This document shows, one piece after another, positions 58,070-64,000 of a DNA stretch of 64,000 bases; position 1 is the first letter of the stretch; every line of letters begins with the position of its first letter. The notes beneath the pieces are model-generated. The model worked only from the letters and a program-made list of their open reading frames with translations, searched no databases and was not told the origin of the DNA. A program made the translations under genes and the position numbers. Source of the DNA: a virus (lineage: Duplodnaviria > Caudoviricetes); the IMG/VR virus record IMGVR_UViG_642918881_000001, positions 5,905-69,904 of that record. The stretch is one strand, 5' to 3'.

Positions 58070-58342
58070 TTACTCGTTGATTTCGCCGACCCAGATCACC
58101 GCACGCATGGCGTCGGTGGCCTTGGCCCCGTCGAGCCCGGTGCCCACGATCACAATGCGCTCGGTGCGTCCGTTGTGGCGGTAGGTGCCGCGCAGCACGC
58201 CGTCGAACTGGAGGTCGTCCAGGGTGATGGTGCGGTGCAGAGCCTCGGCCACGCGGAGCGCGGCGTCCATGTCGGCGGCGCGGTCGTCGGTGGTGATGTC
58301 GGTTTGCGTGCCACGGCTGGTGATGATCGAGAAGGTGGACAT
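58070..58342 (-). CDS. hypothetical protein
   Basis: AAGGGAG RBS; first gene after cassette copy 4. Confidence 0.75.
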   Translation of the reverse strand: MSTFSIITSRGTQTDITTDDRAADMDAALRVAEALHRTITLDDLQFDGVLRGTYRHNGRTERIVIVGTGLDGAKATDAMRAVIWVGEINE

Positions 58343-58364
58343 TGCTGGCTCCCTTACCTGCGGT

Positions 58365-58426
58365 GGCGGGGCGGTCCCGCCTGGCTGATGTGAACACAGT
58401 AACCCGACTAAGGCGGGTAAGTCAAG
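58365..58426 (-). promoter_or_regulatory. repeated promoter/operator cassette, copy 4
   Basis: TTGACT-N18-TACTGT; spacer core flipped relative to copy 1. Confidence 0.85.
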
Positions 58427-58574
58427 AACTGTTTTTGCAGGTCGTAGGTTTGTCCACGCTGTGCCGCCGCACCATGCCGTTCGCCTTGACGGCGAAGCGG
58501 TGCCCGCACGCCCGGCAGTAGTCGTGTCCGCGAAAGGTGCGGGCCGGGGGCTTGTCGCTCCCCGAGCACCGCAC
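58422..58574 (-). CDS. small zinc-binding protein (similar to 55219-55413)
   Basis: Hand translation VRCSGSDKPP...YCRACGHRFAVKANGMVRRH. Confidence 0.5.
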   Translation of the reverse strand: MRCSGSDKPPARTFRGHDYCRACGHRFAVKANGMVRRHSVDKPTTCKNSS

Positions 58575-59811: not shown

Positions 59812-60042
59812 CTACGGCAGCTCCACCTCGTCGTCGGGGCCGGAGCCGTAGCTGGCCGGGTGCTTGGCGGTGGCGCAGCGGCTGTTCTTGCCCGCCATGC
59901 CGATGCCGTGCTTGGCGTTCACGAACGCGGGGTTCATGCACGCTTGGTCGTAGACCGGGTACTGGCCGGTCTCGGCGGTGGCGGTCGCGGCACCGAACAG
60001 GGCCATGCCTGCGGTGAGCGCGGCGGCGATCAGGTACTTCAT
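59812..60042 (-). CDS. small secreted protein
   Basis: Signal peptide MKYLIAAALTAGMALFGAATATA; two Cys. Confidence 0.7.
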   Translation of the reverse strand: MKYLIAAALTAGMALFGAATATAETGQYPVYDQACMNPAFVNAKHGIGMAGKNSRCATAKHPASYGSGPDDEVELP

Positions 60043-60080
60043 GGTGTCCTCCTTGGTTGTGGATGTAGCGGTTTGCTACG

Positions 60081-60150
60081 TGGCCCCGGCTGGACTCGAA
60101 CCAGCAACAACAGTGATCAACTGCGCGCTCCCCAGGTGCGCCGCAGGGCC
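60081..60150 (-). ncRNA. tRNA-like RNA with shortened anticodon arm (loop UUGAUCA)
   Basis: GGCCCTG CG GCGC-ACCTGGGGA-GCGC G CAG-TTGATCA-CTG TTGTT GCTGG-TTCGAGT-CCAGC CGGGGCC A: 7-bp acceptor, D arm and canonical T arm. Confidence 0.7.
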
Positions 60151-60197
60151 TTGGTGGTGCGGGCCGGTGGTCAGTTCACCGACCCGCACCGGTCTTA

Positions 60198-61244
60198 CTA
60201 CACCGGCAGCAAGGCGGTGAACGCCTTGGCCTTCATGTTGCCGATGTCGCTGCTCATCAGGGTGCGCTGGGCGCGGCGGATGGCTGCCTCCTCGCCCTCG
60301 GCACCGGTCACCGGGCGGTGGTGGTCCAGGTACTCGGTGACCGCGTTGTACACACCGAACGCCGTGCCACGGAACGGAGCCACGGTGTCGGCGGTGCGGT
60401 ACAGGTCGACCACCTCGGCGGCGCGCAGCTTGCGGCTCTCGGCCTGCTTCTCGGTGGTGGCACCGGGCACGTTCCAGATGTCCTCCAGCACCTCCAGCAC
60501 CTGCACCGGGTTCATCTCCCGCTTGATCAGGAGTTCGCACTGCTCCACGAACGTGTCGCGGTAGGCGAAGGTCAGCCCCAGCAGCTGGCGCACCTCGGCC
60601 AGGCGCTTGTCGGGCTCGCCGGTGTGGCGCAGGCTCACGCTCGACCGGGCGGCGTGCTCGGCCATGCGCTGCGTGTTGGCGCACACGATGCGCACCGGGC
60701 TGATGATGGCCCGCAGCGCGTCCTCGCCGGTGTGGTTGTTCAGGATGCTGATGTACAGATCGGTGACGTCCAGCTCCCCGGTAACCGGCGACCGGAACTC
60801 CATGTGGGCGGGCATCTTCATGGTGACGAAGGTGTCCCGGCCACCGCGCAGCGCGCCGATGGTCTCGATGTGCGCGCCGCCCTCGTCCACGATCTGGCTG
60901 AGCAGCGCGGTGGTCTGCTCGTTCTGGAACGGGGTCCAGCGGTTGCCGACCACGCCCAGGGCCTCGGTGCCGCCGTTGACGGGGTTCGTGCGGACCACCA
61001 CGTGGCGGTCGGGCACGGTGAGGCTCAGGGTGCCCTCGCCGGTCTGGTCGGGCACCTCGGCCGTCAACGGCACCTTGCGCACGTCCCAGCCGCGCATGTG
61101 GGCGGCGTCCAGGGCCTCGTCGGTGGTCATCAGGTGGCCGACCGGCGTGCCGAGCTTGTGCCAGGCGTCGACCAGCCCGTTGGCGTCGGTGCGGCTGTCC
61201 GCAAAGCTGGTGATGCCGTCGGTGGTGTCGAGTTCGTGTGCCAT
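60198..61244 (-). CDS. DUF932/DUF945-family protein
   Basis: AWHKLG, LGVVGNRWTPFQN, NNHTG, PVRIVCANT and GTAFGVYNAVTEYLDH motifs. Confidence 0.85.
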   Translation of the reverse strand: MAHELDTTDGITSFADSRTDANGLVDAWHKLGTPVGHLMTTDEALDAAHMRGWDVRKVPLTAEVPDQTGEGTLSLTVPDRHVVVRTNPVNGGTEALGVVGNRWTPFQNEQTTALLSQIVDEGGAHIETIGALRGGRDTFVTMKMPAHMEFRSPVTGELDVTDLYISILNNHTGEDALRAIISPVRIVCANTQRMAEHAARSSVSLRHTGEPDKRLAEVRQLLGLTFAYRDTFVEQCELLIKREMNPVQVLEVLEDIWNVPGATTEKQAESRKLRAAEVVDLYRTADTVAPFRGTAFGVYNAVTEYLDHHRPVTGAEGEEAAIRRAQRTLMSSDIGNMKAKAFTALLPV

Positions 61245-61289: not shown

Positions 61290-61412
61290 TTATCGAACCA
61301 GCTCGCTGTCGGTCACCTCGTAGCCCTCGGGCAGCAGCCGGGCCAGGCGCTCGGCCACGTCCAGCGGATGGACGTTTTCGGGAACCGAAATGGTGACGGT
61401 GACGAGCTTCAT
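61290..61412 (-). CDS. hypothetical 40-aa protein
   Basis: AAGGAGG RBS; first ORF after cassette copy 5 (MKLVTVTISVPENVHP...). Confidence 0.65.
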   Translation of the reverse strand: MKLVTVTISVPENVHPLDVAERLARLLPEGYEVTDSELVR

Positions 61413-61436
61413 GGGGTACCTCCTTGGTTGTGGCTA

Positions 61437-61496
61437 GCGGGGCGGTCCCGCCTGCTGATGTGAACACAGTAACCCGCCTTAGTCGGGTAAGTCAAG
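61437..61496 (-). promoter_or_regulatory. repeated promoter/operator cassette, copy 5
   Basis: TTGACT-N18-TACTGT plus hairpin. Confidence 0.85.
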
Positions 61497-61518
61497 ACGT
61501 TCAAGCAGGCAATTTGTG

Positions 61519-62615: not shown

Positions 62616-62948
62616 TTATGCCTCCTCGGCGTTGATGCGGGCGATGGCTGCGGCGGCGTCCTTGGCGCTGGGCACCGACCGCACGTAGATGATGGAGCTG
62701 CCGGGTGCCAGGTCAACCTGGTAACCCACGGCGATCATGTCGTCGGCAAGGGCCTTGGCCTTGCGGACGTTGGCGCTGTCCAGGTCGCTGACGCTGACCC
62801 ACACGTTGGCCGGAATGGTGCGTCCGTTGCCACGGTGGACGCTGAACCCGGCGCGGTGGATCGGCTGGCAGATGATGCCGAAGTCCCGGTGCAGCGCCCG
62901 GCTGACGACCGGGGCAGTAGGTAGACCGTTGGCGGGCTTGCTGGCCAT
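62616..62948 (-). CDS. hypothetical protein
   Basis: AAGGAG RBS; first gene after cassette copy 6. Confidence 0.75.
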   Translation of the reverse strand: MASKPANGLPTAPVVSRALHRDFGIICQPIHRAGFSVHRGNGRTIPANVWVSVSDLDSANVRKAKALADDMIAVGYQVDLAPGSSIIYVRSVPSAKDAAAAIARINAEEA

Positions 62949-62970
62949 GGTTGGCTCCTTGGGTCGCGGC

Positions 62971-63032
62971 GGCGGGGCTGTCCCGCCTGGCTGATGTGAC
63001 CACAGTAACCCGACTAAGGCGGGTAAGTCAAG
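62971..63032 (-). promoter_or_regulatory. repeated promoter/operator cassette, copy 6
   Basis: TTGACT-N18-TACTGT; flipped spacer core; hairpin. Confidence 0.85.
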
Positions 63033-63083
63033 ACCTTGGCAGGGCCAGGACCAGGCAATTTGCCCGGCCCCGGCCCTGGAGGC

Positions 63084-63764
63084 TTACGCCTCGGCCTTGG
63101 CAGCCTTGCGGGCTGCGCGGCGCTCGCGGCGCTTGGCCAACCGCTCGGCCTTGGCGTCGGCCGTCTCGTTGGCGCGCTTGGCGGCGCGGCGGGCGGCACG
63201 GCGGGCCTTGCGGGCAGCCACCTTGTCGGCGTCGGCAACCTCGGCCTCCACCTGCTCGATGGTGGCGTCGGCCTCGGGCTTGACCTCGGTGGTGTCCAGC
63301 TCGGCCAGGGCCTCCTCCAGGTCACCCTCTGGGTCGGCAGCCTCGACCGGCTGGGGCTCGGGGTCGGCGGCAACCTCGGGCAGCTCGGCGGCGGGCTTGC
63401 TGGCCTTCTTGGCGGTCTTGGTGCCCTTGGCCTTGGGCGCGTTCTTGGCCTCGATCAGCGCGTTGATGGCCTCCTCCTGCCAGCCATCGGCGGCGGCGAA
63501 GTCACCGACGCTGACCACGCCTTGGACGCTGGTGGGCACGGCGGGCACCACGGTGGCCTGGTAGCCCTGCTCGGCGAAGTACGCGCCGACCTTGCCGCTG
63601 CCCGCCTTCGCGGCGGCGGCTGCGGACTTGTGCCAGCTGTACGGACCCCAGTTGGTGCCGTCCTCGTTGCCGGTCATCAGGACGTGGGTGTAGGCCATGG
63701 ACCCGGTGGTGCGGGTGAAGGTGGTGCCGTTGGGGGCGGTGGCGGTGAAGGTGATGGTGGCCAT
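63084..63764 (-). CDS. hypothetical protein with acidic linker and Ala/Arg/Lys-rich C-terminus
   Basis: AAGGAG RBS; first gene after cassette copy 7. Confidence 0.75.
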   Translation of the reverse strand: MATITFTATAPNGTTFTRTTGSMAYTHVLMTGNEDGTNWGPYSWHKSAAAAAKAGSGKVGAYFAEQGYQATVVPAVPTSVQGVVSVGDFAAADGWQEEAINALIEAKNAPKAKGTKTAKKASKPAAELPEVAADPEPQPVEAADPEGDLEEALAELDTTEVKPEADATIEQVEAEVADADKVAARKARRAARRAAKRANETADAKAERLAKRRERRAARKAAKAEA

Positions 63765-63790
63765 TTTGGTGCTCCTTGCGGTTGTGCGTA

Positions 63791-63851
63791 GCGGGGCGGT
63801 CCCGCCGTGCTGATGTATGAACACTAACCCGCCTTAGTCGGGTAAGTCAAG
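63791..63851 (-). promoter_or_regulatory. repeated promoter/operator cassette, copy 7
   Basis: TTGACT-N18-TAGTGT plus hairpin. Confidence 0.85.
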
Positions 63852-64000
63852 ACGACCACGGAAGAAAGTTTTTGCAGGTCACAGCGTCTTTTACGTCCAC
63901 CCCTGGTACCGCCCCCGGTGTCCGGCTCCGTGTATTTAGACTAACCTGTTATCCTCCGGCCTCACAACTCCTCCGGCAGGTGGTCGGTTATGCTCCGGCC

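Follow-up and report, generated by a model that had tools for sequence, protein, structure and literature searches.

Several RNAs resemble transfer RNAs (tRNAs) without taking part in decoding. The mascRNA is tRNA-shaped with a reduced anticodon arm and lies inside a longer transcript, directly after a structure that protects the 3′ end, and the vtRNAs of the gammaherpesvirus MHV68 are virus-encoded, non-aminoacylated tRNA look-alikes that act as processing handles for host tRNA enzymes. As described in PMC8457004, RNase P cleavage at the mascRNA unit forms the 3′ end of the upstream MALAT1 RNA and frees the small RNA, and PMC4201824 places the Y RNA YrlA in some mycobacteriophages. Here we analyze a 70-nucleotide (nt) tRNA-shaped element on the minus strand (60150 to 60081) of a virus sequence from IMG/VR record IMGVR_UViG_642918881_000001; the window, the whole stretch analyzed, covers 64 kb of a 69,904-nt phage genome. 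Like the tRNA-like domain of transfer-messenger RNA (tmRNA) and the YrlA Y RNAs, the element combines acceptor and T arms with no decoding anticodon arm. It keeps the tRNA shape but almost certainly cannot decode, and related phages have either different tRNA-shaped modules or no module in this position; the element is therefore probably a non-decoding tRNA mimic and no ordinary tRNA gene. A first-pass annotation of the window had proposed the cloverleaf; new here are its descent from tRNA-Asp, the presence of three interchangeable forms or none at its site, and the annotation of an orthologue as tRNA-Ile.

The element, which we call form A, has the following parts, each read from the sequence.

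60081..60150, minus strand: tRNA-shaped element of 70 nt, form A, supported by sequence, a score of 35.7 bits on the Rfam tRNA family RF00005, and a minimum free energy (MFE) cloverleaf
60150-60144 / 60088-60082, minus strand: acceptor stem GGCCCUG/CGGGGCC, with a U6.G67 pair
60143-60142, minus strand: C8 G9 of the element
60141-60125, minus strand: D arm GCGC-ACCUGGGGA-GCGC
60124-60110, minus strand: shortened anticodon arm CAG-UUGAUCA-CUG plus an outer G.U
60120-60114, minus strand: anticodon-position loop UUGAUCA
60109-60106, minus strand: variable region of about 4-5 bases
60105-60089, minus strand: T arm GCUGG-UUCGAGU-CCAGC
60081, minus strand: discriminator A (position 73), then CG in the DNA

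The MFE fold of the 70 nt is the cloverleaf, with an unremarkable folding energy when the element is taken alone (z -0.80; 46/200 shuffles equally good), and the spacer folded as 161 nt gives z -3.41. The anticodon stem consists of three Watson-Crick pairs and one G.U (3-4 base pairs (bp), 5 bp expected) with C at position 37, CCA is not encoded, CG following the discriminator A instead, and the D-loop GG used in T-loop docking is retained alongside a 7-bp acceptor on a canonical T arm. All coordinates and arms of the cloverleaf in the first-pass annotation agree with the sequence, and the missing CCA, C8 and 3-bp anticodon stem with its G.U are likewise as described there. The element begins 5 nt past a hairpin that closes a gene encoding a DUF932 protein and ends 38 nt ahead of the next start codon. 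We gave no weight to the palindromic loop UGAUCA as a special feature because TGATCA is frequent genome-wide (29 sites); dinucleotide shuffles of the window predict 7.2 occurrences where 29 are counted, an excess that probably reflects codon use, and one of these sites is the element's loop (60114-60119).

Searches against tRNA models recovered the element at a level below that of working tRNAs. The score of 35.7 bits on RF00005 was obtained in a 351-nt scan (E 4.6e-6; gathering cut-off 29) and again over the entire 69,904-nt genome, where the element is the sole match (E 2.2e-7), and the alignment handled most of the anticodon stem and loop as a deletion. All 47 tRNAs of one Mycolicibacterium genome, used as the host reference set, scored above the element on the same model (49.3-75.3 bits), and it is therefore an outlier under the normal score range of the tRNA family. 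Rfam scans of the whole window in gathering-threshold and E-value modes missed the element, a loss attributed to speed filters because the small-region and whole-genome searches recover it. ARAGORN called no tRNA or tmRNA gene at the element at default settings and tRNA-Ile(gat) at a 90% threshold (-ps90), which together with the RF00005 score matches the weak result anticipated for ARAGORN and Infernal. A motif scan for a 7-bp acceptor and 5-bp T stem with a U[U/G]CRANN loop returned exactly one site in 64 kb, this element, against a mean of 0.07 in 30 mononucleotide shuffles. Among the marks of a canonical tRNA, the element shows a score over the RF00005 gathering cut-off (35.7 vs 29); it departs from the standard anticodon arm, in which a 5-bp stem closes a 7-nt loop containing U33 and a purine at position 37, and it also lacks U8 (C8 here) and a default call by a standard finder (none by ARAGORN). 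An RNA of this sequence would almost certainly not decode, and the earlier view of a tRNA-shaped, non-decoding RNA is upheld by the short stem, C37, C8, the score under all host tRNAs, and the retention of the arms in four form-A sequences.

On sequence grounds the element is best explained as the descendant of an actinobacterial tRNA-Asp(GUC) gene, a copy that was remodelled and lost its ability to decode. A gapped pattern from its 5′ half matched at least 121 stretches, and all 80 listed were from Actinomycetota, mostly Mycobacterium, Mycolicibacterium, Nocardia, Rhodococcus, Corynebacterium and relatives; ARAGORN called tRNA-Asp(gtc) in 9/9 pattern-matched loci checked. The best of the 47 distinct host tRNAs was again tRNA-Asp (alignment score 29, 55/70 positions identical), with a runner-up at 20.5 and a median of 10. 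In this alignment the 5′ acceptor strand and D stem are identical and the T loop is the same, likenesses to Mycobacteriales tRNA-Asp(GUC) to which a CUG.UCA remnant of the anticodon loop is added. The D-loop and variable-loop sequences diverge, U8 is replaced by C and the discriminator G by A, and the anticodon stem is reduced from 5 to 3 pairs; unlike tRNA-Asp(GUC), the element thus has a stem 2 bp shorter, an inserted base, C8, A73 and 35.7 rather than 49-75 bits. One extra A converts the anticodon loop CUGUCAC to C/UUGAUCA and the anticodon GUC to GAUC, and this inserted base accounts for the nominal anticodon GAU and the "Ile" call. By eye, T-stem pair 51-63 is changed on both sides from G-C to U-A, two G.U pairs of tRNA-Asp are G-C in the element, and no acceptor, D or T pair is broken, every stem difference preserving pairing. 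The discriminator and anticodon are the main identity elements for AspRS, and because the lesions fall on them, charging of the element with Asp would be unlikely. Host tRNA-Asp genes that we retrieved have CC, CA, CT or CG after the discriminator, and since many of them also lack a full CCA, its absence from the element is no argument against tRNA-type processing. Exact patterns from the 3′ half were uninformative as to a progenitor because they matched tRNAs of many identities (Arg, Ser, Asn, Leu and Met) in unrelated phyla.

The other described systems fit less closely. The element is no member of the mascRNA-menRNA family RF01684 (20.6 bits vs a gathering cut-off of 42.5), and its likeness to mascRNA is a functional analogy only: the element would be processed within a bacteriophage operon, and the structure ahead of it is a hairpin in place of the triple helix of MALAT1. 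The MHV68 vtRNAs differ in belonging to a eukaryotic virus and in being Pol III-driven and linked to miRNAs. We rejected tmRNA, as the element has C3-G70 where tmRNA has the alanine identity pair G3.U70 and drew no tmRNA call from ARAGORN. We also rejected a YrlA-type Y RNA: the TROVE domain of Ro60 (PF05731) is absent from the 69,904-nt genome, control genomes having given matches, YrlA is absent among the Rfam matches listed at E<=10, and the 5′ and 3′ ends of YrlA form the Ro-binding stem, whereas those of the element close a normal acceptor stem. An attP site or tRNA-gene fragment was set aside as well, since the whole tRNA length is represented, with the 5′ half best conserved, and there is no integrase neighbour. 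The neighbouring gene labelled 'integrase' in PP947710 (phage phi1_186018; 3376-4422 of comparison locus L001) is the orthologue of the window's DUF932 gene, whose protein matches only DUF932 in Pfam and PHROG 1221.

A megablast search with the region gave 48 matching records, nearly all Mycobacterium phages, and those inspected belong to the genus Coopervirus, which we take to be subcluster B4. We compared relatives by reading the homologous spacer after the DUF932 gene, with few distinct sequences available per cloverleaf form, and found four states after the DUF932-closing hairpin in Coopervirus: form A, form B, form C or no module. Form A is carried by the window, phi1_186018, RawrgerThat, Stinger and the metagenomic viral contig L021, and scores 38.3 bits on RF00005 in RawrgerThat and 37.3 bits in Stinger. 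Form B is intact in 13 phages (Cooper, Magpie, Apex, Heath, Zemanar, BobbyK, Frederick, Bane2, Vincenzo, AlanGrant, Mithril, Fortunato and Hangman), corresponding to 18/20 records of the form-B match listing, and has an acceptor UCCAGGG/CCCUGGA with G73, C8, a D stem GGCG/CGCC whose loop contains GG, a canonical T arm and, in the anticodon position, a 4-bp mini arm with a 4-nt GACG loop. RF00005 gave no match to form B at E<=1, the form-A model (R1) recovers it at 25.9, 23.5 and 15.8 bits, and ARAGORN at the 90% threshold calls a tRNA with its anticodon at position 27; PMC4472886 reports no tRNA by Aragorn or tRNAscan-SE in Vincenzo and AlanGrant, both form-B phages. Form C occurs in six phages (ChrisnMich, JAMaL, VioletZ, Hydro, Imvubu and Rinkes; nine records of the form-C listing), in Imvubu between different genes, and has a 6-7 bp acceptor UCCYCG/CGRGGA with G73 and a weak D arm. 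In this form a long arm of 7-11 bp takes the place of the anticodon arm, and the 5-bp T stem closes a non-canonical loop of 7 nt. No progenitor of form B or form C stands out among the 47 host tRNAs. The layout is constant in carriers (hairpin, 2-5 nt, cloverleaf, leader), the anticodon position is short in forms A and B and long in form C, forms B and C have no 7-nt anticodon loop, and the acceptor identity differs among forms (G1-C72 with A73 vs U1-A72 with G73).

Other relatives delimit this distribution. Bane1 carries a rearranged form B in which ~38 nt, from the 3′ arm of the hairpin to the D loop (about 260-300 of locus L016), are reverse-complemented relative to Bane2; the rearrangement destroys both hairpin and cloverleaf and could be a real inversion or an assembly artefact. 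No cloverleaf follows the DUF932 gene in Gadjet, Arbiter, Phelemich, Saguaro, Quesadilla, KayaCho or loci L027, L029, L030 and L031, taxa that include five other Bclasvirinae genera and mostly have spacers of 10-72 nt or plain hairpins. In L027 and L029 (about 2590-2680) the DUF932 hairpin is followed by a long imperfect hairpin of ~75 nt and then a promoter-like cassette. Searches with R1 found no convincing further copy in the window, the comparison loci or the full genomes of ChrisnMich, Waleliano, Imvubu, Magpie and KayaCho (best other match 17.5 bits), and because this genome search missed Magpie's own form B, it is insensitive to other forms.

Pairing is largely maintained in the three forms. 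In form C, 9/21 pairs are changed on both sides and 95.2% of cells pair, compared with 43-60% for slid partners, and 0/500 shuffles reach any measure, in four sequences only. Form B pairs at 60/60 stem cells, and its mini anticodon stem holds both a double change, in which U-A is replaced by C-G, and a change of G-C into G.U; form A pairs at 80/80 stem cells across four distinct sequences. Forms A and B differ on both sides at 9/16 acceptor, D and T pairs with all pairs kept (by eye), differences that we did not count as covariation because common ancestry of the two forms is unproven. A MAFFT alignment of forms A and B (A1) misregistered the D and anticodon stems and no pairs were counted on it, and a model-made alignment (A4) contained three spurious rows and was left unused. 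The fold belongs to the gene-sense RNA, because all forms contain G.U pairs, which the opposite strand would present as A.C mismatches. Between the window and RawrgerThat the element is identical at 66/70 positions (94%) and the flanking genes at 320/394 and 180/222 (81%), and in closer pairs the element is about as conserved as its flanks.

The forms also move independently of their surroundings. DUF932 proteins 96-97% identical to that of the window occur in phages with form A (Stinger, L021), form B (Cooper), form C (ChrisnMich) and no module (Adawi), and form A is present in RawrgerThat despite flanks that are 81% identical; the form carried is uncoupled from flank similarity. The same variant hairpin occurs in Stinger and Adawi, of which only Stinger has the 70 nt, and no target-site duplication accompanies this difference. 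On these grounds the slot is a recombination hot spot rather than a transposon site.

The element sits in a 155-nt spacer (60043-60197) between two minus-strand genes, with the following surroundings.

60198..61244, minus strand: upstream gene, 348 amino acids (aa), DUF932 (PF06067, E 2.1e-50; PHROG 1221, function unknown)
60156..60190, minus strand: predicted hairpin of 14 bp with a 7-nt loop, 7 nt past the DUF932 stop codon, with no U tail
60151..60155, minus strand: ACCAA spacer from hairpin to cloverleaf, a 2-5 nt gap in all carriers read
60065..60079, minus strand: small predicted hairpin GUAGC-AAACC-GCUAC, 5 bp
60043..60064, minus strand: leader with the Shine-Dalgarno CCACAACCAAGGAGG (60048-60062) of the downstream gene, from motif matches
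59812..60042, minus strand: downstream gene, 76 aa, hydrophobic N-terminus (PHROG 8425, function unknown)
61406..61500, minus strand: promoter-like 95-nt cassette, nearest upstream copy (repeat family D1, four copies)
58336-58430: promoter-like 95-nt cassette, next copy downstream (repeat family D1)

The 76-aa open reading frame (ORF) opens at the first start codon past an in-frame stop, which rules out the element as coding sequence in the window. The 14-bp hairpin could be a terminator or 3′-end stabiliser, and its position is filled in all Coopervirus relatives read, either with paired stem changes or by another hairpin; it was missed by a terminator-pattern scan, which is attributed to its absent U run. 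The small hairpin occurs only in the window and phi1_186018 among form-A carriers read and appears to be lineage-specific, no conserved part of the module. The first-pass annotation had the cloverleaf bracketed by two hairpins: both do fold, and the role given to the second was overstated. In the MFE fold of the whole spacer the Shine-Dalgarno is covered only in part, by a weak 3-bp helix, and does not pair with the cloverleaf, and the leader motif also stands ahead of other genes in the phage (eight matches at <=2 mismatches, 0.05 expected).

Two further cassette copies lie at 62942-63036 and 63761-63855, making four copies of ~95 nt in the right arm that are 60-86% identical to the reference copy. 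In the minus-strand reading of the printed plus strand the cassette combines a TTGACT hexamer with a GC hairpin and an inverted repeat of the ACCCGCC..GGCGGGT type; it is likely to be a repeated early promoter/operator unit, and the copies at 61406-61500 and 58336-58430 bound the presumed operon that contains the element. The placement of the element inside an operon transcript, as proposed in the first-pass annotation, is consistent with the same-strand genes and these bounding cassettes, and a consensus scan between the two cassettes found neither a sigma-70-like promoter nor a U-tailed terminator. In L026, L027 and L029 a similar cassette lies behind the DUF932 gene. Pfam searches of 34 neighbouring and non-structural ORFs revealed neither a tRNA-related enzyme nor a toxin partner, nor any GIY-YIG or HNH family, and PHROGs searches of six ORFs likewise gave no such enzyme or partner. 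A 50-aa ORF (58425-58574, minus strand; PHROG 6601, function unknown), situated in the same operon about 1.5 kb downstream, carries a Cys/His-rich motif HDYCRACGH...RRH, and an HNH endonuclease is annotated at a comparable position in Cooper.

We assign a probability of about 45% to the reading that the element is a non-decoding tRNA-shaped module kept for its acceptor, T and D part and excised by host tRNA-end enzymes. A minus-strand operon transcript from the promoter-like cassette near 61500 would include the element; RNase P cutting at G1 and RNase Z or exonucleases acting after A73, possibly with the CCA-adding enzyme, would recognise the acceptor/T/elbow half and excise it. Excision would leave the DUF932 mRNA ending in the hairpin and a 5-nt tail, give the downstream mRNA a new 5′ end, and free a stable ~70-nt tRNA-shaped RNA neither charged with Asp nor used by the ribosome, and the selected outcome may be either this mRNA punctuation or the released RNA. 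All forms share an acceptor stem stacked on a 5-bp/7-nt T arm, and it is this half that RNase P, RNase Z and the CCA-adding enzyme recognise. By sequence, forms A and B further display the substrate features of RNase P and RNase Z (7-bp acceptor on 5-bp T stem, canonical T loop, D-loop GG). Excision is the most economical mechanism because the layout is fixed and the acceptor/T half is retained without the decoding half.

Several observations weigh against excision as a selected function. The module is dispensable: sequence reading shows the hairpin joined straight to the leader in Waleliano, Prince and Adawi, and match patterns alone indicate the same absence in BrownCNA, Lolalove, Austelle and Mudslide. 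Covariation in relatives, which had been proposed as a check, is strong in form C and does not extend to the other forms: in form B it is not significant (170/500 shuffles reach it, three sequences), and form A has no double compensatory change, with 19/20 pairs invariant, only a U-A/U.G switch in the acceptor, and the remaining differences in loops. Form A's invariant pairs say nothing for or against selection, and recent transfer, not selection, could explain why the element is more conserved than its flanks. RNase P recognition is not assured for every form, given C8 in place of the near-universal U8 and the non-canonical T loops and weak D arm of form C, and efficient termination at the upstream hairpin, if it occurs, would mean poor transcription of the element. 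Among the sequencing runs listed none is on record as RNA; metagenome contigs from four wastewater runs (X1-X4) show only two letter changes inside the element, at 60087 and 60120, the same as in phi1_186018, and carry no information on its expression.

Some of these points would also suit a neutral relic: an ancestral phage would have captured a tRNA-Asp gene, a small deletion in its anticodon arm would have inactivated it, and it would persist, functionless and unpurged. The tRNA-Asp ancestry with lesions at AspRS identity positions, the outright loss of the module in several relatives, the inability of Bane1's form B to fold, and the scant sequence variation within forms A and B, from which selection cannot be proved, are all as such a history would leave them. 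We nevertheless consider a relic unlikely, as three unrelated-looking cloverleaves occupy one site, all lacking a normal anticodon arm and keeping acceptor and T arms, form C covaries strongly, every acceptor, D and T stem difference from tRNA-Asp preserves pairing, and the element is more conserved than adjacent coding DNA between the window and RawrgerThat; phage genomes are moreover compact and tend to shed useless DNA. A working tRNA-Ile(GAU) has behind it the PP947710 annotation of a 70-nt tRNA-Ile at the orthologous place, a score over the RF00005 gathering cut-off and the ARAGORN Ile(gat) call at lowered threshold, yet is exceedingly improbable: the anticodon stem has three Watson-Crick pairs and a G.U where 5 bp are expected, C37 and C8 are present, the score is under all 47 host tRNAs, the body is Asp-like with GAU arising from an A inserted in GUC, a 7-nt anticodon loop is missing altogether from sister forms B and C, and PMC4472886, cited above, gives no tRNA by Aragorn or tRNAscan-SE for the form-B phages Vincenzo and AlanGrant.

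The freed RNA may itself be what is selected, serving as a decoy or sponge that binds, or is modified by, a host or prophage factor that reads the acceptor/T half, such as a 3′-end toxin; the forms would then mimic different tRNAs and spare host tRNAs during infection. The toxin families that we have in mind are MenT and toxSAS. This possibility, which is compatible with excision (excision first, action after) and not exclusive of it, draws on the uncoupling of presence, absence and form from flank similarity, turnover of a kind typical of accessory, conflict-related loci, and on the differing acceptor identities (G1-C72/A73 vs U1-A72/G73), but it seems doubtful: neither Pfam (34 ORFs) nor PHROGs (six ORFs) revealed a tRNA-related enzyme or toxin partner. 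Of the decoy readings, one directed at anticodon nucleases fits worst, because conservation does not extend to the anticodon arm, which is short in forms A and B and long in form C. We regard as decidedly unlikely the more specific idea that the slot holds interchangeable anticodon-less RNAs, excised as acceptor-end mimics that divert host or prophage tRNA 3′-end factors, with forms A, B and C as arms-race specificities. A structure acting in cis without tRNA enzymes, as an exonuclease roadblock, a modulator of read-through at the hairpin or a modulator of translation of the 76-aa gene, would account for the fixed place between hairpin and leader in all carriers, for the conservation of form C's shape without canonical T and D loops, and for the long plain hairpin of L027 and L029 at the same site. 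It is nonetheless quite improbable, as forms A and B keep tRNA-specific details (UUCGANU T loop, D-loop GG, 7+5 bp stack) needless for a generic roadblock, and the only contact with the Shine-Dalgarno in the spacer MFE is a weak 3-bp helix that does not involve the cloverleaf.

Existing annotations treat the element inconsistently. Its orthologue in PP947710 (phi1_186018), a record with 95.6% DNA identity to the window over the region, is annotated as a 70-nt tRNA-Ile, in RawrgerThat it is unannotated, and in Stinger gp88, Cooper gp92 and JAMaL gp91 the slot is buried under extended coding calls. The coding sequence of the downstream gene is extended over the cloverleaf and/or hairpin spacer in Stinger gp88 (L004 375-749), Cooper gp92 (L002 1491-1865), JAMaL gp91 (L014 290-583) and Adawi gp90 (L017 93-401). 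In most relatives this small gene starts at a conserved ATGAAGTACCTG with a good Shine-Dalgarno, and judged by sequence the four longer versions look like over-long start calls. A full-text literature search found no description of the element, although published mycobacteriophage tRNA tables may list one for this subcluster.

An element variously called tRNA-Ile, hidden in coding calls or left unannotated thus bears on how these genomes are annotated, and its three exchangeable forms constitute a natural swap-and-delete experiment in M. smegmatis. If it is processed as proposed, it would be a bacteriophage counterpart of the MALAT1/mascRNA arrangement, in which a tRNA relic would have become an internal cleavage site, fixing the termini of the adjacent mRNAs and giving rise to a small tRNA-shaped RNA.

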